DNA of 55,202 nt, taken from the IMG/VR virus record IMGVR_UViG_3300041809_002179, positions 1 to 55,202 of that record, one strand, 5' to 3'. Shown here one piece after another: positions 28,658 through 38,149 of this stretch (position 1 is the first letter of the stretch; each line of letters opens with the position of its first letter). The position numbers and the translations under genes are program-made. This DNA is from a virus. Its lineage: Duplodnaviria; Caudoviricetes. The notes under the pieces were generated by a model. That model saw nothing but the letters and a program-made list of their open reading frames with translations. It was not told where the DNA came from and did not search any database.

Positions 28658-29362
28658 ATGGCGAATATAAACAAAGGCATTCCTAACATCTGGTTCTCGG
28701 GTGACAAGCACTTGTTTCACGAGTTCATGGTCCGAGGTATGCCGGAGTGCGATAATTGTGGCAACAGGGTGAGCAATGAAGATGCGAAGAACGGCTTCTC
28801 AACCTGCTGCAAAGCCGCCGTGCTTACAGCGGAGCATCCACCGCGCCCGGGATTCGCCAACATTTGGGACATGAATAAAACCATCATCAACAATCATAAC
28901 GAGGTTGTTGAAAAAGGTGATTTGGTCTACGAAATCGGAGATTTTGCAGTCAAGTGTTCTCCACAACAAGCTCGTGACGCCCGTTACAAAATGAAAGGTA
29001 ATTTTTACTTTCTCCGAGGAAACCATGATCAAGTAGCCGAGAAGATTCCTGACTGTTGGATTTGGATGAAAGACTTGTATCGGTTCAAGCCCAAGGGTTG
29101 GGGTGACATTCCACACATCGTTCTGTGCCACTATGCTATGCGTGTTTGGCACGGTTCACACAAAGGAACGTGGCAACTATTTGGGCACAGCCATAATCAA
29201 CTTCCTGAAGAGCCAAGGTGGCTGGCTTTTGACGTTGGGGTTGATGCCCATAACTTCTATCCGGTTTCCATCCAACAAGTAATTGACAAGATGGCTAAGA
29301 AAATGCCGCTTTGGGAAGCGTGGAAGAAAAGACTCGGGAAACAGGGAGGAGTGGGAGATTGA
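28658..29362 (+). CDS. Calcineurin-like metallophosphoesterase
   Basis: GDKH, IGD, GNHD, CHY, FGHSH, DVGVD. Confidence 0.88.
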   Translation: MANINKGIPNIWFSGDKHLFHEFMVRGMPECDNCGNRVSNEDAKNGFSTCCKAAVLTAEHPPRPGFANIWDMNKTIINNHNEVVEKGDLVYEIGDFAVKCSPQQARDARYKMKGNFYFLRGNHDQVAEKIPDCWIWMKDLYRFKPKGWGDIPHIVLCHYAMRVWHGSHKGTWQLFGHSHNQLPEEPRWLAFDVGVDAHNFYPVSIQQVIDKMAKKMPLWEAWKKRLGKQGGVGD

Positions 29363-29661
29363 GCATAGAGGATTTCTGGAACGTACCTCCCCGACATGCG
29401 TATCCGGACGTGGGCACACTTATAGAGGAGACAGCGCGAAAGTTGAACGTCTCTCCTCGAGACCTGAAGGTCTTCGTCAAGAGATTTGTAGGCTTGGCAA
29501 ACGACCGCATAGAGGAAGTTGTGGGGTTCAATTCCGCTCCGGCCCGCCGCGCCTGCGCCGCGCTTTCTGAATTGATAGTGGAGGAGAAAAATGTTGGGGC
29601 GGATGACTCTGGGAACAACTATGTGTGTTTGGCAAGAATGGGTACTAAGGAGTCCTCTTGA
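29359..29661 (+). CDS. Hypothetical protein
   Basis: ORF coupled to both neighbours. Confidence 0.45.
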   Translation: MSIEDFWNVPPRHAYPDVGTLIEETARKLNVSPRDLKVFVKRFVGLANDRIEEVVGFNSAPARRACAALSELIVEEKNVGADDSGNNYVCLARMGTKESS

Positions 29662-30608
29662 CGGAGATATATCAGCGCGTCGCAACTAAATTCGTAGAAC
29701 GTATTCACGAAGTCTGGAATTCCGAAGAGACCCTGAAAGAAGAGTTTCTAAAGAGCTTTCCTCATTTACCTTTCACCCGCACCGACAATTGGCAACTCAT
29801 AGCGCATAAGCTCTTCCGTGACGTCTGGCTGGAAGCAGGGCCGGAAGTCAAAGGGGAACCAACCGGATATGATAAGATGGTTGTCATGCGCATAGTGCAC
29901 CCGAAGCTGGATTACAATTTGTTTACACAGATTCTGCTCAACCTTCAAAACTATCTCGGCATAGGCTACGCGGTAGAGGACGCGGAACGCGAAATTCTAG
30001 AGCTGAAAACCAAATGGCCGAAGGAGGCGAAGCTAGATCCCTTTAAACCGGGTAGCAAGATGGTCAAAAATGCTTCCAATTTTGAAGAGATCGCTTACAA
30101 CAATGTTCTTTCAACGCAGCGAGCGCATAAGATCATCTCGGAATTTAGCGGAGGGACTAGTTTTCGAGTTTCTCCAGCCGGCAGCACTCCGGCCTTTGCC
30201 GACAGCCGGAATATATCGATGATTGGTGTAGGTGGGGACAAGTACCTTCGCACATTATCTACCTTGGCTCCTTACTACATCACTTGGGAACAAGCGCCTG
30301 AAATGGCGCGGTTGGATGATCGTCCCGGTTTTCCAAATGGCCTTTGGTTTTGGGCGGAAGGGATTTCTTACCCGTTTGTTTCCAAGTCCGGAGGAGAGAC
30401 TCTACAGGATGTTCTATTCGCCCGCAAGATCATGTATGAGGTCTTTTGGGGCGTAGACATAACCCAGAAGCAGTGTATCCAGATTCCGCGGATGAACTCC
30501 GTGCTGGTGATCACTGGTAAGCCCGCGCCGGATTTGAAGATTGTGGTGGAGAAGTTGCAGGCCCGTTGGCCCGGTGTGATTAGCTTTTATGAAGGAGCGC
30601 GGGGATGA
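29658..30608 (+). CDS. Hypothetical protein
   Basis: 316 aa, SD aaggag. Confidence 0.7.
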   Translation: MTEIYQRVATKFVERIHEVWNSEETLKEEFLKSFPHLPFTRTDNWQLIAHKLFRDVWLEAGPEVKGEPTGYDKMVVMRIVHPKLDYNLFTQILLNLQNYLGIGYAVEDAEREILELKTKWPKEAKLDPFKPGSKMVKNASNFEEIAYNNVLSTQRAHKIISEFSGGTSFRVSPAGSTPAFADSRNISMIGVGGDKYLRTLSTLAPYYITWEQAPEMARLDDRPGFPNGLWFWAEGISYPFVSKSGGETLQDVLFARKIMYEVFWGVDITQKQCIQIPRMNSVLVITGKPAPDLKIVVEKLQARWPGVISFYEGARG

Positions 30609-30853
30609 AAAAAGTCACTTTTGATAATTTGCCCATGGCATTGCAAACCGCCGATGATAAGTGGATCGTACTGTTTGTTTTGAACAACGTAGAGTTTTCT
30701 TCAACCAAAATCGAAACCAAAGAAGAAGCGATGGCTGTTGTACAGCGGGTGGAAGAACGAGTCAAGGAATGGGCCGCTCCAGGGGGAGCGTGGGTGGAAG
30801 AATTGGAAGATCCGCCCCGGCTGGAAATCCCCGGTCCGAATTCCAATCGCTAA
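30605..30853 (+). CDS. Hypothetical protein
   Basis: 82 aa, coupled start. Confidence 0.6.
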   Translation: MKKVTFDNLPMALQTADDKWIVLFVLNNVEFSSTKIETKEEAMAVVQRVEERVKEWAAPGGAWVEELEDPPRLEIPGPNSNR

Positions 30854-30893
30854 TGAATAGCTGATTTTAGAAATTCAGCAGTAGTATATGAAC

Positions 30894-30968
30894 ATGAAAC
30901 GCAGCCTATCACTATCGAGCTATTATCTGTTGCTTAGCAACGGCTGCGCGGAGGTTCGCGTCGGATAA
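30894..30968 (+). CDS. Leader peptide of the Tyr/Leu tRNA operon, MKRSLSLSSYYLLLSNGCAEVRVG
   Basis: Manual translation; codons CTA, CTA, TAT, TAT, CTG, TTG, CTT; embedded in alternative hairpins; alternative in-frame ATG at 30888. Confidence 0.8.
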   Translation: MKRSLSLSSYYLLLSNGCAEVRVG

Positions 30969-31013
30969 AAGACGAGAACTGACCGAAAGCAGCCGCCGAA
31001 AGGCGGCATTTTT
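30900..31013 (+). promoter_or_regulatory. Transcription attenuator (1:2, 2:3, 3:4 hairpins)
   Basis: cgcagcc 30900-06 pairs ggctgcg 30942-48; cggctgc 30941-47 pairs gcagccg 30989-95, which overlaps the terminator stem. Confidence 0.8.
30992..31013 (+). terminator. Intrinsic terminator directly upstream of the tRNA cluster
   Basis: gccgcc-gaaa-ggcggc then attttt. Confidence 0.9.
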
Positions 31014-31024
31014 ATTGTTCGGAC

Positions 31025-31113
31025 GCATGCGATGGGAGAATTGGCTGATCCCAGTGGTCCGTAAAACCACCGCCCTCAGGGGCATGGGGGTTCGATTCCC
31101 TCGGCATGCACCA
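31025..31113 (+). tRNA. tRNA-Tyr(GTA)
   Basis: Stem gtggt/accac, loop CC-GTA-AA, long variable arm, T-loop TTCGATT, ACCA end. Confidence 0.85.
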
Positions 31114-31129
31114 GTTTAGATGTAGACGT

Positions 31130-31216
31130 GCGCTTGTGGCGAAATTGGCAGTCGCGCCAGCTCGAGGGGCTGGTGGTCGCAAGGCCGTGTCGGTTCGAGT
31201 CCGACCAGGCGCACCA
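31130..31216 (+). tRNA. tRNA-Leu(GAG)
   Basis: ccagc/gctgg stem, loop TC-GAG-GG, long variable arm, ACCA end. Confidence 0.88.
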
Positions 31217-31221
31217 AGTTT

Positions 31222-31308
31222 GCAGCTGTGGTGGAATTGGAAGACGCGCTGGACTTAGGATCCAGTGGCCGAAAGGCCGTGCAGGTTCGATGCCTGTCAG
31301 CTGCACCA
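31222..31308 (+). tRNA. tRNA-Leu(TAG)
   Basis: ctgga/tccag stem, loop CT-TAG-GA, ACCA end. Confidence 0.92.
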
Positions 31309-31314
31309 AGATTT

Positions 31315-31404
31315 GCGCGGGTGATGAAATTGGCAGCCATGTAGGATTCAGAATCCTATGCCCTTCAGCAAGGCGTGCCGGTTCGACTCCGGTCTCGCGC
31401 ACCA
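31315..31404 (+). tRNA. tRNA-Leu(CAG)
   Basis: tagga/tccta stem, loop TT-CAG-AA, ACCA end. Confidence 0.92.
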
Positions 31405-31409
31405 AGTTT

Positions 31410-31495
31410 GCGGTTATGGCGGAATGGCAGACGCGCTAGGCTCAAACCCTAGTGGGAGCAATCCCGTGGAGGTTCGACTCCTCTTAGCCGCACCA
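31410..31495 (+). tRNA. tRNA-Leu(CAA)
   Basis: ctagg/cctag stem, loop CT-CAA-AC, ACCA end. Confidence 0.93.
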
Positions 31496-31789
31496 ATCTT
31501 CTAGCTGTTCTCCTTCCTTTACCCGTAGTTTACTTTGAGAGGCAGAGACTCTAGGTCTAGTTTGTGGTAGGAATCCAGCCTCTCCCGAGCCATAGGAGGC
31601 CGCGCTTGTTAATCAGTCCAAAACCTCTTGAGAAGATGATTGAATCCGCCACTTTTCGGCTGGATATGGATTCGACTTTGTTTACCCTGGAGGAGATCCC
31701 TCGTCTTTATCATTTGTTTTTGTCATTAGCCGAAGAAGTGAAAAAGTTGCAAGTGGAGAGTAACAAACTTTATGGGGGTGATGACATCT

Positions 31790-32110
31790 ATGAAGAAAGT
31801 CTCCTTTAACCCGACCACCGAAGCCTTCACAATCACTTGTTGCAAGTTCTCGGTCTCCGCCAAGTACAAGTACGATTGCGCAAATAAGTTCCTCAACCAT
31901 GTTCGTCGACATCATTCAGACGAGTACGAGAAATTGAAAATTCAGGCGCGCAAATTAGCTCGAAGCCAAAACGGCTGCGGATATTTTGACGCCGGTGAAG
32001 ACGGTCCGACTTCGGGCTGGGCTAAGGCAGGCCACGAATTCAGAGAAGCCTGGGTTCGACAAGCATTGATGGACAAGTTCGCAGCCGGGCAAAGTCCGTG
32101 GGGAGGATAG
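31790..32110 (+). CDS. Hypothetical protein
   Basis: ORF of about 106 aa; start uncertain. Confidence 0.55.
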   Translation: MKKVSFNPTTEAFTITCCKFSVSAKYKYDCANKFLNHVRRHHSDEYEKLKIQARKLARSQNGCGYFDAGEDGPTSGWAKAGHEFREAWVRQALMDKFAAGQSPWGG

Positions 32111-32111
32111 C

Positions 32112-32585
32112 ATGAAAACTCATCTCTTGGTGGTGGACGACGACAACGATGTTCGCGAGGGACTCGCTATGCACCTTTCGGACTTAGGGTACGCGGTTCG
32201 CCAAGCACGAAGCGGCGACGAGGGTCTAGAGTACTTCCACAATCGCGGGCCGTTTGGTTGCGTGATTTCCGACTACCAAATGCCTGGTTTGAAGATCAGG
32301 GACGGTGTGGCGATGCTCGCAGCCATCCGCGCCGAAGTACCGGAGCAGAAATGTATCATCCAATCTGCCAGTTGGAACTTAGCGGAATTGATGGAGGAGA
32401 TGGGGATTGGGGATATTCCGATTCTGCACAAGCCTTACAGTTTGAAAGAGATGGCGGAGGCTCTTACGAAAATGGGAGTGTTGGCCGATTATGGGAAGGC
32501 CGATCTCGACGACATTCGTTACGCTCAAGATTGTGAGTCAACAGATGGTGGAGTAGACGGCATAATCCAAGGATGGAAGAAATGA
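32112..32585 (+). CDS. Stand-alone response-regulator receiver domain (CheY-like)
   Basis: LLVVDDD, ISDYQMPG, QSA, HKPY. Confidence 0.9.
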   Translation: MKTHLLVVDDDNDVREGLAMHLSDLGYAVRQARSGDEGLEYFHNRGPFGCVISDYQMPGLKIRDGVAMLAAIRAEVPEQKCIIQSASWNLAELMEEMGIGDIPILHKPYSLKEMAEALTKMGVLADYGKADLDDIRYAQDCESTDGGVDGIIQGWKK

Positions 32586-32700
32586 AAAGTTGGTTAACGG
32601 CCACACTCACCGTTCTCTTTTTGGTCTTGACTGTAATTCGTTGTGCACAGATTTATCAGACGATCCAGTTAACGCACCAAATCGAACACCGGCTCAAGAA

Positions 32701-33234
32701 ATGAATTTACCCACCCGCATCGGTTGCTTCAAAGGTCCATGGGGCTTTTTGTCCAACTTTGCCCCGGCCAAAGTCAAGCTGTGGATAGACGAACGAAATG
32801 TTCCCTACGCTCACGACATCCATCTGTTCATTGCTCTCGATGTAGAAGAATACGAGAGTGTTGAACATGCCTATCACGCAGCCAAGTTTCTAGACCCAAA
32901 GATTCGCGCCTTATTCCGATTGGCCATATCACCCTCCGACGCTAAAGCGCAGGCTCACAAGCTCAAAGACAAGATTCGTCCGGATTGGAAAGAAGTCAGT
33001 CTGGTCATTATGAAGGACCTAGTCCTCCAGAAGTTCGCCGGCAGCATCATGCGCCGGAAGCTGCTGTCGACATTCCAAGCGGAGTTAGTCGAAGGCAACT
33101 GGTGGCATGACAACTTCTATGGTGATTGTCTCTGCGAAGACTGCGCGAACATCCCAGGCGAGAGCCATCTGGGAAAAATACTCATGGAAGTACGGGGGAT
33201 CATCTATGCTCGTGGTTTGTGCAAAGACAACTAA
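32701..33234 (+). CDS. NADAR (YbiA-like) family protein
   Basis: FLSNF, SVEHAYHAAKF, KF...LVEGNWWHDNFYG, LGKILMEVR. Confidence 0.9.
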   Translation: MNLPTRIGCFKGPWGFLSNFAPAKVKLWIDERNVPYAHDIHLFIALDVEEYESVEHAYHAAKFLDPKIRALFRLAISPSDAKAQAHKLKDKIRPDWKEVSLVIMKDLVLQKFAGSIMRRKLLSTFQAELVEGNWWHDNFYGDCLCEDCANIPGESHLGKILMEVRGIIYARGLCKDN

Positions 33235-33598
33235 AACGATGGACGGGACCTACCGCGTTACCCGTTGCCTGCATCCTTGGGAATCGATCGTAACCTGCGG
33301 AGTTCTAGCCGTTTATTTTCCGGACATCAAGCAAAACGATGCTCTCGATTTCATGACTTGGGTACGAAATTTTCAGCCTCTTTTTACGGATGTGATGGCC
33401 GCCGTTATCAGTGATGGATTGTTCTGGAGGACCGGGTCAATAGATGCCCCAACTTCTATAAGCATCCCAACATCGGAAGCTGAAAATCTTATCGACGCCG
33501 CGTTTGGAAAAGTTATCATAACCCCAAACGACAACGATCTCAAGTTTCTGAAGTCCCTGCGGATCAAATGGAGTTCCGATGAAGAAGTTGAAGCCTAA
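33206..33598 (+). CDS. Hypothetical protein
   Basis: ORF overlapping neighbours; start uncertain. Confidence 0.5.
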   Translation: MLVVCAKTTKTMDGTYRVTRCLHPWESIVTCGVLAVYFPDIKQNDALDFMTWVRNFQPLFTDVMAAVISDGLFWRTGSIDAPTSISIPTSEAENLIDAAFGKVIITPNDNDLKFLKSLRIKWSSDEEVEA

Positions 33599-34076
33599 GA
33601 AGCCGAAGATCAACCCGGACTACACTTGGTTCGATCTCAAGGTTGTCCGATCGCCCATCCACCGTTATGGTGTTGTCGCGAACGTGGACATCTCGAAGAA
33701 GAAATGGGTGATAGAGTACACTGGCGTCCTCATGAATCGCAGGCAGCACCGGTGGATGATCGACAATACTTCTGAGGAGCGCCAGATTTACATTTGGCAG
33801 GTGGCCAAAGGGCAAAACGATAGTGCAAACTGGGATTGGGTTATCGACGGCTGGACGAACGGTAGCGGAGCGGAGTTCATCAACCATTCCTGTGACCCCA
33901 ACCTGTACATGCATTTCATTGGACGCCGGGGCTATTATGTTTCTCTTCGCCCGATTAAGAAGGGCGAAGAACTAACCATTGACTATGCTTTTCGGTGGGA
34001 GAAAGATGAGAAGCGCCGGGTGAAGTGTAATTGTGGAAGCCCGAAATGCCGAGGCTGGATCAACAGAGAACGATAA
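33579..34076 (+). CDS. SET-domain protein-lysine methyltransferase
   Basis: SPIHRYGV, IEYTG, FINHSCDPN, GEELTIDY, post-SET CNCGSPKCRG. Confidence 0.95.
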   Translation: MKKLKPKKPKINPDYTWFDLKVVRSPIHRYGVVANVDISKKKWVIEYTGVLMNRRQHRWMIDNTSEERQIYIWQVAKGQNDSANWDWVIDGWTNGSGAEFINHSCDPNLYMHFIGRRGYYVSLRPIKKGEELTIDYAFRWEKDEKRRVKCNCGSPKCRGWINRER

Positions 34077-34355
34077 TCTAACTGAAATTGTTAATTTCCC
34101 AGTAATATGTAGAGGACGGCGAGACTCGCACCACTACGCTCTAGTAAGACCAAAGAGACTTGGGCCTTCGTTGGACCGTCCACTAGCACTGCGAAATTTC
34201 TTAGTGCGCTGCAAAGTGCGCTCGGGGATAAAGTAGCAGTGCAACCAGAAGCTAAGGTTGCCCAGCGATAGAGGCGAAGCCGGATATTGCACTGGGTTGG
34301 CGAACAGCGACACCGGACCTGCCCTCCGGACTATCTGGTTACATGGCATAATTTT

Positions 34356-34421
34356 ATGGCGACGAAGATACCAACGATGCGACCGCAACCCCGAGTGCTC
34401 GGGGTTTCTGAAGGCGACTAA
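34356..34421 (+). CDS. Leader peptide of the Pro/CAT tRNA operon, MATKIPTMRPQPRVLGVSEGD
   Basis: Manual translation; codons ATA, CCA, ATG, CCG, CCC; preceded by TGgCATAAT extended -10-like sequence and no SD. Confidence 0.75.
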   Translation: MATKIPTMRPQPRVLGVSEGD

Positions 34422-34456
34422 GCCTTCGAACCCTGAGCGCAATGCCAGGGTTTGTT
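34387..34456 (+). promoter_or_regulatory. Transcription attenuator (1:2, 2:3, 3:4 hairpins)
   Basis: aaccccga 34387-94 / tcggggtt 34399-406; ctcggggtt 34398-406 / aaccctgag 34429-37 enclosing gaaggc/gccttc; terminator aaccctg 34429-35 / cagggtt 34446-52 + tgtt. Confidence 0.75.
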
Positions 34457-34500
34457 CCGGATTCAATCCCAACAATTCACTGGCTTCCCCGTTTTGATAT

Positions 34501-34578
34501 CGGGACATGGCGCAGTCTGGTTAGCGCACCGGTCTGGGGGACCGGGGGTCGCCAGTTCGAATCTGGCTGTCCCGACCA
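34501..34578 (+). tRNA. tRNA-Pro(GGG)
   Basis: C1-G72, ccggt/accgg stem, loop CT-GGG-GG, ACCA end. Confidence 0.95.
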
Positions 34579-34589
34579 ATTTTTGAATC

Positions 34590-34782
34590 GACCGCATAGC
34601 TCAAAGGTTAGAGCGGCGCAAATGGACAGGGCGTGGCAAGGGCAGCAAGTTGCGGAAGAACCGAAAAGGCTGTTGAGCCGGAGGCCGGGGATAATCCGGT
34701 CACTCTACGGAGTGTAGGGAATCGCGTTGCAGCTGTCTAAACGGCGGAAGCCGGATGGGGTTCGAGTCCCCTGCGGTCATCA
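34590..34782 (+). ncRNA. tRNA-like RNA with a large structured insert in place of the anticodon arm
   Basis: Acceptor gaccgca/tgcggtc, D-arm tagctcaaaggttagagc, T-arm gggg-ttcgagt-cccc, ATCA end. Confidence 0.6.
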
Positions 34783-34794
34783 GTTTAGGAGTAT

Positions 34795-34871
34795 CAGGGT
34801 ATAGCTCAGCCTGGTAGAGCGCACGTTTCGGGAACGTGAGGTCGCTGGTTCAATCCCAGTTACCCTGACCA
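34795..34871 (+). tRNA. tRNA-Pro(CGG)
   Basis: cacgt/acgtg stem, loop TT-CGG-GA, ACCA end. Confidence 0.95.
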
Positions 34872-34886
34872 ATTTAGGAGGATGTT

Positions 34887-35006
34887 ATGGGGTTGAGGCT
34901 GCTGCTTGTAGGCTTGATGGTTTCAGGAAGCCTGATGCTTGGTGCAAGTGTGCTTCTCAGCGTCATGGCTCTGGTTGAGAAGTACCGGCCATCGGGTAAG
35001 TTTTAA
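34887..35006 (+). CDS. Small single-TM peptide between tRNAs
   Basis: SD aggagg; MGLRLLLVGLMVSGSLMLGASVLLSVMALVEKYRPSGKF. Confidence 0.5.
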   Translation: MGLRLLLVGLMVSGSLMLGASVLLSVMALVEKYRPSGKF

Positions 35007-35010
35007 GTTT

Positions 35011-35087
35011 CGGCGATTAGCGCAGTCGGGTAGCGCACATGCCTTGGGCGCATGGGGTCGGGGGTTCAAATCCCTCATCGCCGACCA
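35011..35087 (+). tRNA. tRNA-Pro(TGG)
   Basis: catgc/gcatg stem, loop CT-TGG-GC, ACCA end. Confidence 0.95.
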
Positions 35088-35327
35088 ATTTTGAGTGTGC
35101 GGTCGGGCACCCCACTCCTTGCTTCTGCTTGGGTGCAAGTGGTGCATGCGAGTGCCGACCGCCTTGAATTTCGGAGGAACAATGTTCGAGGCAGACAAAT
35201 GGCAGCACAAGAATTGCGGCGGGCAACCCCGTGAGTTTGAGCCAGGAAAATGGGAGTGCACGAAATGCAACGGTGCATGGTACGCCGGGGTTGATTTCTT
35301 CAAGTACCTGGCAAATGTAGTGTTCGT

Positions 35328-35404
35328 GGCTCTGTAGACTGGAGACGGTTCCAGCGTGGCCTCATAAGCCAATCACGTCGGTTCGATTCCGACTAGAGCC
35401 ACCA
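35328..35404 (+). tRNA. Elongator tRNA(CAT): Met or Ile2
   Basis: ggctctg/tagagcc acceptor, loop CT-CAT-AA, atypical D-arm, ACCA end. Confidence 0.8.
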
Positions 35405-35552
35405 AATTTAACTTTCAAGAACTATTTCAGCGCTGTGGCAAGGGAACCGGCTCCTTCTTTGGTCCGGCCAGCGCATAACACATAAGGAGGATATCAGATG
35501 GCTATGCACACGTCCCATACCGCGTAATGTGTGGGCGGAAAGGCTTAGTCAT

Positions 35553-35852
35553 ATGGATCATCCGAAGGATCGCCGGGAACGGCGGGCCGTGCGGGATGTT
35601 GTAATCGCTCGTAGAAAGTTTATCGTCACCCAAATTTGGGGACAAGACTCATATAGTAAGAGCAGCGACTTTCAACGTAAGTGGATCGCTGAAATGGAGT
35701 GGGGTAAGTACGCCAAGTTCAATTTGAACTGTGGTTGTATGATGTGCCACTCTCCGAAGTATCTCAGTGCCAAGCGCAAGCGCCGGTTGGCCCTAAAATT
35801 TTCTGAGTCACAGGCAGAATTTCGCCATAATGACAACGCAATTAAGTATTGA
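35553..35852 (+). CDS. Basic hypothetical protein
   Basis: Arg/Lys-rich with CGCMMC. Confidence 0.55.
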   Translation: MDHPKDRRERRAVRDVVIARRKFIVTQIWGQDSYSKSSDFQRKWIAEMEWGKYAKFNLNCGCMMCHSPKYLSAKRKRRLALKFSESQAEFRHNDNAIKY

Positions 35853-35858
35853 AGATTG

Positions 35859-36122
35859 ATGGCAAAGACCAAGAGATCGGAACTTAGAGAAAAATTGCTG
35901 GCCTTGGTGACGGAGATGGGTGTATTGCCTCCTGCCGAAGCCAAGCGGCTCGCGAGTAGACTTTGTGACATGGCATATGGTTGGATGAGGACTCCTGAAT
36001 CTGAAGGAGATGCTTTTCTGACAGCTTTCAAAGCCAAGTTGCTTGAAGAGTTTTCGCCGAAGGTGAAGAAGAGAAAGGAAAATAGTCGGGGTGGTGGGCT
36101 TAAAAGCAGCCATCCTCAATGA
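35859..36122 (+). CDS. Hypothetical protein
   Basis: AGTATT motif 14 nt upstream; 3' end overlaps the structured RNA. Confidence 0.5.
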   Translation: MAKTKRSELREKLLALVTEMGVLPPAEAKRLASRLCDMAYGWMRTPESEGDAFLTAFKAKLLEEFSPKVKKRKENSRGGGLKSSHPQ

Positions 36123-36282
36123 GTGTCTCGCTGAATCCTCGAATACGAGGTCGTGGCTGCCGAAGAAGGGCCGAACGTACTCACGCGGAAGGCAAGAGGA
36201 TTGCAGTTCAGCTACCGAGTAAGAAGCGGCTGACCGACATTGAGTTGTGGCCAGGACTTTAGCGTAACAGCACGCCTCGACT
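36084..36282 (+). ncRNA. RNA resembling 23S rRNA helices 43-44 (uL11-binding site) with internal insert
   Basis: GGTGGGCTTAAAAGCAGCCATCC ... AGCGTAACAGCAC closed by agtcggggtg/cgcctcgact. Confidence 0.7.
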
Positions 36283-36372
36283 TTACGACTTTATGATTTC
36301 AAGTGGCTGCTCCGCACTAAACGACGGAGCGAGGAACTAAGTATCATTGAGGGATACCAGCCACAGTTTTGA

Positions 36373-36449
36373 AGCGGGGTAGAGCAGCCAGGTAGCTTGT
36401 CGGGCTCATAATCCGAAGGTCGTCAGTTCAAATCTGACCCCCGCAACCA
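36373..36449 (+). tRNA. Initiator tRNA-fMet(CAT)
   Basis: 1:72 mismatch, tcggg-CTCATAA-tccga, ACCA end. Confidence 0.9.
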
Positions 36450-36778
36450 ATTTGGAAGACCGGAGTCCGCGGACCCATCCGAGGCTATAGCGTCGTGCAT
36501 CATAGCACTAGGCCAGTTTGGCTGATGGCGATTAACTGCCCAAACACAGTATCGGATACCCGGTCACCATTTTTGTATCAGTCAGTCCGGTGGGAGTTGC
36601 ATCAACCATATGTTCGAACCGGATCCGGCAGGAGTCGAGATGGGCGCACTCGAGCTGACGTAGCTTTGGTCCGAGGCCCGTTATGGGCGAGTGGCCTTAG
36701 CGGGGAAGCTCCCTTGTCCCTTTACCCGTGGTTGGGAGTCCGCTGCAGCGGATCACGGGTCACATTTTAGGAGTGAGA

Positions 36779-36994
36779 ATGGGTAGCCCTTCAGAATATA
36801 ACAGACGGCAGTGGCTTTCCGACAATCCCCATCATTATGTAGCGTCTCGGGGAGAAGAACCTCTCCCTTTCTTAAAGTGCTCGTCATCGGTCTGTCCCAG
36901 ACCAGCGAGCATTACTCGGAACAAACTTGTGTTCTGTCAACCCTGCTTTGACCAGGACGAGAGACTAAAGAACGACTATCGACCCGGACTATGA
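36779..36994 (+). CDS. Small Cys-containing protein
   Basis: SD aggag; CSSSVC...CQPC. Confidence 0.45.
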   Translation: MGSPSEYNRRQWLSDNPHHYVASRGEEPLPFLKCSSSVCPRPASITRNKLVFCQPCFDQDERLKNDYRPGL

Positions 36995-37275
36995 ACCTCT
37001 TCCAGCTAGGCCAATTCAAACTTCATTCAGGCCAAGTCTCAGATTTCAAGATCCAATGTGAAGCGTTGACGGACGCTGACCTAGACTGCATAGCGTTTCT
37101 GTTGTCCCGTAGGGTGCCTCCGTTTGGTTCGGTTGAAGGTGTTCCGACGGGCGGTAATGCTCTCGCCTTGAAGATGGAACGTTATATTGTGAAAGGAAAT
37201 CATCGTCTGTTGGTTGTAGACGATGTGTTTACTACCGGAAGATCGCTGAGCAACCCTACAATCCTGAAACTCTGA
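36991..37275 (+). pseudogene. Truncated orotate phosphoribosyltransferase-like gene
   Basis: GQFKLHSG, EGVPTGG, LLVVDDVFTTGRS, then stops right after the PRPP motif. Confidence 0.6.
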
Positions 37276-37664
37276 AGAGGATCGTAAATCTTAATGCGAA
37301 CTTCCCCAAGGCACTATTCGCTGTGGACATCAAGGGGGTCACGCCGGAGGATTACGAAAAGAATACCCGGAAACCTTTCAAGGCTGAGCTGTTTTGGTCC
37401 AATCTGAATGCATTGGTGGATCACGGAATCAATTTCTACATCACCTACACAAATCCGGACGAAAGGTTCCGGCCCGCGTTCGAGTACAAACTCAAATATC
37501 ACTTCGGAAGCGATGTTCTCAACGACAGCTTTGTGATTCCTTTGATTGACTATGACGCTACGCCGTTCGTGGACATTCGACCGCTGCATGGCAACTCGTG
37601 TTGCTCAATGTCCGTGGATGATTGGAACCCTCAAACTTCGGGTGGAAACTCTCCCAAGTTGTAA
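37245..37664 (+). pseudogene. C-terminal fragment of a possible radical-SAM-like gene
   Basis: Frame is open upstream of the GTG at 37323; AVDIKGVTPEDYEKNT..LFWSNL resembles a radical-SAM barrel end; no CxxxCxxC present. Confidence 0.3.
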
Positions 37665-37915
37665 TCCAGAAGCTTCAAGAAAACGTGCCATCCGCAGCCG
37701 CCGCCTGCATAGTTGATATCCGGATGTGGGTTGACGTCGTGGAAGAAACTCGCGGTTATGGTTCCGTCAGCATGAACGTGGCGCAGACTGATGTGGGAAA
37801 TGTGACCGCACTGGCACTTGATAATTGGTCTGCACATCTTCCCCTCCCACTCGTGGGGGATCCAGCACGGGGAGGGGCTATCGTAATCCCCCTTTGGGAT
37901 CTCCGTTAGTTCCAT
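37631..37915 (-). CDS. Small Cys/His-rich protein
   Basis: CQCGH...DGTITASF...GCGWH. Confidence 0.6.
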   Translation of the reverse strand: MELTEIPKGDYDSPSPCWIPHEWEGKMCRPIIKCQCGHISHISLRHVHADGTITASFFHDVNPHPDINYAGGGCGWHVFLKLLDYNLGEFPPEV

Positions 37916-37944
37916 AAAAGAAAAAGGGCCGGTCGACCGGCCCT
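37916..37944 (-). terminator. Intrinsic terminator
   Basis: agggccgg-tcga-ccggccct followed by ttttctttt on the minus strand. Confidence 0.85.
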
Positions 37945-37978
37945 CATCTCACTTCACTTCTTGCCGGCGCAGGCCGAC

Positions 37979-38149
37979 TTACAGCTTTGCTTTTACGTCA
38001 GCCACAAGAGTCTTCACTTCGGCAACCGCCGAAGTTTCGTACTTCTGGAGGGCTGTCTTGACGGCGGCCAACTTGGCAGCGTTCTTCACGCGGCCCGCTG
38101 CAAAGCCACCGGCGAATACAACAAGAGCAGCAACGATTGTAACAACCAT
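37979..38149 (-). CDS. 56-aa membrane-anchored Ala/Lys-rich peptide
   Basis: MVVTIVAALVVFAGGFAAGRVKNAAK...; SD aaggag, upstream AGTATT, downstream terminator. Confidence 0.7.
   Translation of the reverse strand: MVVTIVAALVVFAGGFAAGRVKNAAKLAAVKTALQKYETSAVAEVKTLVADVKAKL

Follow-up and report, generated by a model that had tools for sequence, protein, structure and literature searches.

A probable leader-peptide attenuator of a Tyr/Leu tRNA array in a jumbo-phage genome and comparable leaders in other large phages

Bacteriophage genes for transfer RNA (tRNA) are usually viewed as constitutive helpers for codon usage or as spares against host anticodon nucleases. The locus described here raises the question of why such genes should stand behind a short open reading frame (ORF) and a terminator. 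It lies in the IMG/VR virus record IMGVR_UViG_3300041809_002179 (Duplodnaviria; Caudoviricetes), which covers 55,202 bases, has a completeness estimate of 17% and is part of a larger jumbo-phage genome; this whole stretch is called the window below. In the window, a 24-codon ORF and a predicted intrinsic terminator precede an array of five tRNA genes, one for tyrosine (Tyr) and four for leucine (Leu). On the basis of computation and comparison with related phages, we consider it likely that this element is a functional leader-peptide attenuator of the Tyr/Leu array. The same reading had been proposed in a preliminary description made from the sequence alone, whose coordinates for the leader, its segments, the terminator and the tRNA genes all match the sequence. 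It has gained support from the recurrence of the element at 13 of 13 distinct related loci, from two conformers of nearly equal energy, from a modelled switch that depends on ribosome position, and from the absence of a promoter-like site between the terminator and the array.

The Tyr/Leu leader, its relatives and its predicted switch

In the proposed mechanism, four RNA segments would form either an antiterminator (2:3) or a terminator (3:4), with helix 1:2 acting against the antiterminator (Table 1). Transcription would begin at or a few bases before the ATG at 30894, and a ribosome would translate the 24-codon leader. When charged cognate tRNAs are ample, the ribosome would reach the 3' third of the ORF and the stop codon, covering segment 2 and the middle hairpin; segment 3 would then pair with segment 4, the terminator would form, and the polymerase would stop before tRNA-Tyr, which starts 17 nucleotides (nt) beyond the terminator in the window. 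When a cognate tRNA is scarce, the ribosome would stall within codons 5-12 and hide segment 1, leaving segment 2 free to pair with segment 3 atop the middle hairpin. No terminator would form under these conditions, and transcription would read through into the five tRNA genes. The new tRNAs would relieve the stall, which would close a negative feedback loop. If the leader is not translated at all, helix 1:2 and the terminator would form.

Related loci were collected by means of the upstream gene (29658-30605), which encodes 316 amino acids, has no Pfam family and served as the anchor for a search of viral contigs. The search gave 8 loci and, with a profile, 26, making 27 sources including the window. 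A Tyr/Leu tRNA array lies downstream in 19 of them, and the other eight are without one inside the fetched flank. The 19 array-bearing sources correspond to 13 distinct upstream regions, and in all of these a rule-based script found an ATG-initiated ORF of 23-30 codons and a G+C hairpin with a T-run, placed 7-49 nt before tRNA-Tyr. The distance from the stop codon to the terminator is 21-31 nt throughout (13/13). The stop codon stands near the apical loop of a long hairpin in every region, and the base of that hairpin contains the 5' arm of the terminator. The 2:3 alternative is likewise present at each of the 13 distinct loci.

The anchor proteins are 44-90% identical, and the leader DNA has a mean column identity of 55%. 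Reading frame 0 is open in 13 of 13 regions, frame +1 in none of them and frame +2 in one. The leader peptides have a mean column identity of 48%; what they have in common is their composition and a Leu-Ser-Leu...Tyr...Leu-Leu-Ser-Gly core. Their serine (Ser) positions switch from the TCN to the AGY codon family and back, a pattern that speaks for selection acting on the amino acid that is decoded. At one relative, locus L002, the upstream gene is a different one and the leader is retained. At another, L087, the two arms of the terminator have exchanged places, with a matching alteration of segment 2.

Folding was examined for the window and for its relatives. The 171-nt intergenic RNA of the window folds with a z score of -4.62, a value that none of 200 shuffles equalled, and its minimum-energy fold consists of helix 1:2, the middle hairpin and the terminator. 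For the RNA of segments 2-4, the antiterminator has an energy of -34.5 kcal/mol and the forced terminator one of -33.4 kcal/mol; in this model the two forms are within about 1-2 kcal/mol of each other. The 2:3 antiterminator put forward from the sequence is competitive by this measure, the two conformers being nearly iso-energetic.

Ribosome footprints were also simulated. In the final model only the RNA 3' of the simulated ribosome was folded; a version with free 5' RNA was dropped, since its helices could enclose the ribosome. In the window, the probability of the terminator, P(terminator), is about 0.65 when the aminoacyl (A) site is on codons 2-7, with helix 1:2 still forming, and falls to 0.13-0.36 over codons 8-12 (Ser, Ser, Tyr, Tyr, CTG). 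Once the A site has arrived at TTG, the probability stays at 0.93 or more. Moving the footprint edge by 3 nt shifts the switch point by one codon. This modelling, which the preliminary description had suggested as a check, places the switch from terminator to antiterminator at the Tyr/Leu codons. Specifically, the tandem Tyr codons and the first Leu codon of the run are well placed, and the last two Leu codons are not; the caveat raised earlier, that a stall at the last Leu codon may cover segment 2, was well founded.

Among the 13 regions, the 5' arm of the terminator can be sequestered ahead of the synthesis of segment 4 only with the ribosome at or before the Leu/Ser/Tyr block (13/13). Without a ribosome, folding favours the terminator in 11 of the 13, where segment 2 is paired with the codon block, and the antiterminator in the remaining two. 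Additionally, in a clade of seven sequences, the small hairpin over the last Leu codons co-varies, with changes on both sides in five pairs. This hairpin may act as a pause hairpin.

The leader of the window has five Leu codons (CTA twice, CTG, TTG and CTT), a tandem TAT and five Ser codons, and Leu and Tyr together account for 7 of its 23 residues, a 2.55-fold enrichment over the background of 0.12. One Leu codon for each Leu tRNA, with TTA absent, had been claimed for this locus. The claim holds in the window but is not universal, as the phage Tunturi_5 described below breaks the pattern. For the window alone, the chance that five Leu codons span four isoacceptor classes without TTA is about 0.10. 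Similarly, terminator-like sites in the region are not in excess (8 found, 8.0 expected from shuffles). What exceeds chance emerges from comparing the window with related phages.

The Ser codons are probably part of the sensor too, since Leu, Ser and Tyr tRNAs stand together in the arrays of the related record G003 and of Tunturi_5, whose leaders are the richest in Ser. Among bacterial tRNAs, a long variable arm is the mark of these same three types, Leu, Ser and Tyr.

Searches of general resources gave little besides tRNA genes. A cmscan of positions 29000-38000 against Rfam, with E values up to 1, returned tRNA matches and two weak matches to an unrelated plastid family; the curated leader families, which we take to be those named for the Leu, Thr, His, Trp and Leu/Phe leaders, gave no covariance-model match. 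When the region was compared with phage records by blastn, the tRNA genes were the sole matches. A degenerate pattern for leader plus terminator, run over viral contigs, found 57 stretches, of which only five stand before tRNA-Tyr, all five on contigs already in the set.

Table 1. Positions of the Tyr/Leu leader, its array and the second leader unit in the window
Feature	Position	Strand	Basis or remark
-10-like hexamer, putative leader promoter	30882..30887	+	Read from sequence
Leader ORF, 24 codons + stop	30894..30968	+	ATG 30894, TAA 30966-68; translation putative
Segment 1, partner of segment 2, anti-antiterminator	30900..30906	+	1:2 helix in minimum-energy fold
Regulatory codon block Leu-Ser-Leu-Ser-Ser-Tyr-Tyr-Leu-Leu-Leu-Ser	30906..30938	+	Codons; footprint folding puts the switch inside
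Small hairpin over last Leu codons, 5 base pairs (bp), 3-nt loop	30929..30941	+	Folding
Segment 2, within 3' third of ORF	30941..30948	+	Folding
Middle hairpin, apical loop holds stop codon 30966-68	30949..30985	+	Folding; 2:3 helix stacks on it
Segment 3	30989..30995	+	Pairs with segment 2 (antiterminator) or, via 30992-97, with segment 4 (terminator)
Predicted intrinsic terminator	30992..31019	+	6-bp G+C stem and 4-nt loop (30992-31007), then T-run; sequence-level, also in terminator scan
tRNA array Tyr(GTA), Leu(GAG), Leu(TAG), Leu(CAG), Leu(CAA)	31025..31495	+	tRNA calls, Tyr start 31025
Pro/Met leader unit	34356..34457	+	ORF and hairpins

Downstream of the last tRNA-Leu gene, positions 31496-34076 hold no terminator-like site. 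The same-strand genes 3' of the array include those for receiver-domain, NADAR-domain and SET-domain proteins. Such genes might be co-transcribed with the array and hence stand under the same attenuator.

Leader composition and tRNA content of other arrays

The Tyr/Leu leader seems to belong to a more general system that has apparently not been described. Five related records carry 32-62 tRNA genes each, and these genes fall into recurring groups: Tyr/Leu with or without Ser; Pro/Met/Phe; Val/Ala/Gly/Asp/Cys/Glu; and Ile/Thr/Gln. One genome has an additional run of His/Arg/Asn/Lys/Phe/Met/Pro/Gln/Trp tRNAs. Many arrays begin with a small ORF and a terminator of their own, the ORF being rich in the amino acids that the tRNAs of the array carry. 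Cognate residues make up 13/28 and 15/28 of the Ile/Thr/Gln leaders (background 0.14), 18/29 of the Tyr/Leu/Ser leader of G003 (background 0.18), and from 17/32 to 31/47 of the Val/Ala/Gly/Asp/Cys/Glu leaders (background 0.36). The G003 array that contains three tRNA-Ser genes and tRNA-Leu(TAA) is preceded by a leader with 10 Ser codons and TTA.

The match was also assessed by a fixed rule applied to 28 arrays in seven genomes. In 16 of them, the rule found a strict terminator together with an ORF chosen by position. For 15 of these 16 leaders, the highest fold-enrichment within the genome is that for the leader's own array; in the sole exception, the own array is outranked by an array of one tRNA. 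When 22 position-picked leaders are taken, the own array comes first in 22 of 22 and none of 20,000 within-genome permutations reaches the observed sum, although five Pro-class ORFs of this set were picked by eye, so that part of it is biased.

The proposed switch recurs as well. The 22 leaders cover all classes, and in 17 of them the 5' arm of the terminator forms part of the base of a hairpin that holds the stop codon in its apical loop or next to it. The terminator sequences vary among the classes, and the pairing partner within the ORF varies with them. A shuffle-based statistic for arm pairing was dropped in favour of a test in which each leader's own terminator arm is compared with swapped arms. 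For the segment 2:3 duplexes, the summed energy is -258.2 with the own arms and averages -186.3 with swapped ones, and 0 of 20,000 permutations reach the own value; taken singly, the own arm ranks first in 9 of the 17 leaders.

The window itself contains a second leader, ahead of an array of three proline (Pro) and two methionine (Met) tRNA genes (34501-36449). Its ORF (34356-34421, 21 codons) includes two ATG codons and the Pro codons CCA, CCG and CCC, which correspond one to one to the three tRNA-Pro anticodons. A hairpin at 34389-34404 is followed by a weaker, terminator-like one at 34430-34451, with T-rich tails. This leader aligns with the Pro/Met/Phe leaders of four relatives. The automatic antiterminator test showed none for the Pro/Met leader class.

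Several further features were seen around this array. A promoter-like site lies at about 34101, 250 nt upstream of the leader ORF, and a conserved C/A-rich box at 34465-34475, between the Pro-class hairpin and the first tRNA-Pro gene, is also present at loci L096 and L106. At 34590-34779 there is a tRNA-like gene whose acceptor, D and T arms are clear but which is interrupted by about 100 nt. This insert matches no Rfam intron family, and the intron search of ARAGORN gave as its candidate a predicted tRNA-Ser(GGA) whose intron would measure 98 nt. In G003 (L093), a sequence resembling the insert is present upstream of the Pro array.

The culturable phage Tunturi_5 of Tunturiibacter provides a comparison with a known host, an acidobacterium. 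Its anchor protein is 39.6% identical to that of the window and its genome has 308,711 bp, with 43 tRNA genes reported in the Tunturi paper (PMC11924767). The Tunturi_5 arrays differ in composition from those above, and the leaders follow. Two Cys codons, together with codons for Leu, Ser and Tyr, stand in the leader of its array Leu-Cys-Leu-Leu / Tyr-Leu-Ser-Ser-Ser. Its other two arrays, Trp/Asp/Met/Lys/Val/Arg/Glu and Gln/Gly/Thr/Pro/His/Ala/Phe, are likewise headed by a matching ORF with a terminator. One leader-type ORF of this phage is annotated as a protein, the hypothetical gp308.

Comparable units were found in two phages of the Dolichocephalovirinae, Brevundimonas phage Gurke (L112, ON529850.1) and Caulobacter phage CcrColossus (L113, JX100810.1), whose similarity to the window is confined to tRNA genes. 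In both, units of leader ORF, antiterminator and terminator with cognate residues and unrelated sequences occur at two arrays or more. In Gurke, a Tyr/Val/Ile/Val/Gln/Asn array stands behind an ORF rich in exactly those residues; the stop codon is 28 nt before a 12-bp terminator, the 5' arm of which pairs with the 3' part of the ORF. A homologous leader precedes the Val/Ile/Gln/Asn/Arg array of CcrColossus, with the terminator 232 nt before the first tRNA gene. The array of three tRNA-Pro genes in Gurke is preceded by an ORF with a run of four Pro codons.

Taken together, these comparisons incline us, with less assurance than for the Tyr/Leu leader, to the broader view that on-demand expression of tRNA arrays is a trait of large phages in two or more unrelated lineages. 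Each array would stand under its own cognate leader ORF, and only that array would open on shortage. The lineages concerned would be the jumbo phages of Acidobacteriota type, including the window and Tunturi_5, and the Dolichocephalovirinae of Caulobacter and Brevundimonas. Shortage could arise from a mismatch in codon usage, from demand late in infection, or from cleavage of tRNAs by host defence nucleases.

Some observations on these genomes stand apart from this question. One tRNA group unites all five amino acids whose codons start with G, together with Cys. The arrays are often broken by small ORFs, such as an HNH-like ORF at 4232-4669 of L002. Three loci, L098, L101 and L102 (records G004, G001 and G002, respectively), carry tRNA genes whose CTA anticodon would decode the stop codon TAG, and one of these genes adjoins a tRNA-like gene with a four-letter anticodon call. 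Leaders of different classes (L092, L098, L100, L108 and others) have a similar Gly/Trp/Asp/Gly-rich tail before the stop codon. As judged from the sequences, this common C-terminal tail points to shared descent, or to a possible role of the peptide end or its RNA.

The promoter, contrary evidence and competing explanations

Most relatives have a clear promoter right before the ORF, with a -35 element, a 17-nt spacer, a -10 element and an A/T-rich upstream stretch. The window and its closest relative, L002, have a -10-like hexamer only, located about 5-6 nt upstream of the ATG in both. If transcription does start from this putative promoter, the closeness of the hexamer to the ATG means that the messenger RNA (mRNA) would be leaderless or nearly so. 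The ORF of the window has a second in-frame ATG at 30888; the start at 30894 is the one common to the window and L002. An inverted repeat at 30860-30879, with 5-bp arms and a 10-nt spacer, overlaps the presumed promoter spacer and has a similar counterpart in L002. It may be an operator or mark the end of the upstream transcript. A phage-specific promoter motif in the window was considered as well and found no support. A separate promoter between the terminator and tRNA-Tyr, which the preliminary description had named as the rival source of constitutive transcription, did not appear either, as the scan gave no promoter-like site in the gap of 17 nt.

Several results weigh against attenuation, at this locus or as a general scheme, and the first of them concern the promoter. 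In the window, the -35 element is weak, the site is absent from the consensus promoter scan, the -10 motif has 5 matches against 4.37 expected and is not above chance, and no Shine-Dalgarno sequence is visible before the leader ORF. Codons and tRNAs do not correspond everywhere. The array of the window has no tRNA-Ser despite the five Ser codons of its leader, as had been remarked from the sequence; the leader of L077 has TTA without a tRNA-Leu(TAA); and in Tunturi_5, CTA is used in the leader without a tRNA-Leu(TAG), and the codons CTG and TTA are missing from it although the CAG and TAA tRNAs are present. By the strict rule, 12 of the 28 arrays have no leader, five of these being Pro-class arrays with weaker terminators. 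Moreover, the homologous leaders that enter the counts are not independent, and the effective sample is about 8-10 classes or lineages.

The structural evidence is uneven too. In the model of the window, a ribosome stalled on either of the last two Leu codons favours termination. Taken as a single sequence, the window shows no more sequestration of the terminator arm than its dinucleotide shuffles, and only 5 of the 13 sequences exceed theirs (at or below 0.05). RNAalifold, applied to a MAFFT alignment of all 13 leaders, gave no consensus structure, and in the clade of seven sequences it gave little co-variation of the antiterminator. Finally, in 4 of the 13 relatives, P(terminator) is at least 0.79 at every ribosome position when the full terminator is folded at equilibrium, so the model needs a kinetic argument.

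Such very stable terminators would sit well with a different explanation, in which the ORF is translated but affects the array by a route that is not specific to a tRNA, such as effects on how the precursor is processed or how stable it is, or a general link between read-through and the capacity for translation, with the codons tuning the speed of translation only. The Gly/Trp/Asp-rich C-terminal motif conserved across classes also hints at a role of the peptide end or its RNA. In a model of this kind, however, the amino-acid match between leaders and arrays (15/16 and 22/22) would be purposeless, and the pairing segment co-varies with the terminator arm. We regard this explanation as improbable, though it fares best among the alternatives.

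Slightly less credible still is the idea that the ORF encodes a conserved, independently functioning micropeptide and that the hairpin is a partly leaky terminator or a processing signal. The ORF is indeed conserved, with its frame open in 13 of 13 regions, and one such ORF carries the annotation gp308 in Tunturi_5. However, the peptide is poorly conserved beyond its composition (48%), and that composition tracks array content across classes. The fixed gap of 21-31 nt between stop codon and terminator, and the pairing of the 3' part of the ORF with the terminator arm, are unexpected for a free-standing gene.

A T-box-like RNA that binds uncharged tRNA directly, with the ORF incidental, would explain both the position before genes of the translation apparatus and the alternative terminator and antiterminator helices. 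The element spans only about 120 nt, no Rfam family other than tRNA fits it, and its ATG-to-stop frame is open in 13 of 13 regions with many different cognate codons in frame, which makes such an RNA very unlikely. As for a chance ORF beside the terminator of the upstream gene, the codon pattern of the window (chance about 0.1) and the lack of enrichment of terminator-like sites would allow it, but all comparative results speak against it, including the retention of the leader behind a different upstream gene in L002, and we give it almost no credence.

Comparison with known attenuation systems

Attenuation of tRNA genes or of phage tRNA arrays was not found described in the full-text literature that was searched; older papers beyond it may hold a precedent. 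In the text of the Tunturi paper, "attenuat" and "leader" are absent (PMC11924767). If the broader view of arrays run on demand is correct, this would be the first attenuation system that senses its own product, and a general, overlooked layer of translation control in phages. The supply of tRNA would be regulated, self-correcting and modular by amino-acid set. Attenuation would also extend from its classical setting to RNA products, and it offers a testable explanation for the grouping of tRNA genes in these genomes. In the leaders, small sensors of natural origin would be available for the supply of almost all tRNA species. Culturable systems are at hand in Tunturi_5 on Tunturiibacter psychrotolerans and in CcrColossus on Caulobacter crescentus.

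Among the known systems, T-box elements resemble the phage leaders in that tRNA status is sensed and a choice between terminator and antiterminator is made before translation-related genes. A T-box binds uncharged tRNA directly, needs no ORF, spans 200-300 nt and carries a conserved T-box sequence. These features were not seen in the phage leader, which has no Rfam match and is far shorter.

The attenuators of trp, leu, his, pheA, thr, ilv and pheST are textbook cases of leader-peptide attenuation. Like the enterobacterial attenuators, the phage element has a short ORF with a run of regulatory codons, the 1:2, 2:3 and 3:4 alternatives, a terminator right before the genes, and a stop codon so placed that a ribosome finishing the leader would block the antiterminator. 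It differs from them in being a phage element with codons for mixed amino acids, in the seemingly leaderless mRNA of the window and in matching no Rfam leader family. Additionally, the enterobacterial operons make enzymes, whereas the phage leader would control tRNAs, so that the sensed molecule would be the operon's own product. In pheST of Escherichia coli with its pheM leader, as in the phage element, a component of the translation apparatus is attenuated for the amino acid of the leader codons. That component is a cellular synthetase gene, in contrast to the tRNA genes under the phage leader. A Phe leader before the tRNA-Phe genes of E. coli K-12, considered as a possible parallel, proved unsupported, with a promoter only at pheV and only a 106-nt gap at pheU.

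Multivalent attenuators are also known, namely ilvGMEDA, with codons for Ile, Leu and Val, and thr, with codons for Thr and Ile. As in these operons, one phage leader would serve several amino acids, a shortage of any of which can trigger read-through. Unlike them, a phage leader may combine up to about nine amino acids, as for the array of G003. In ilvGMEDA and thr the codon set corresponds to the end products of the pathway, whereas in the phage leaders it corresponds to the tRNA content of the array.

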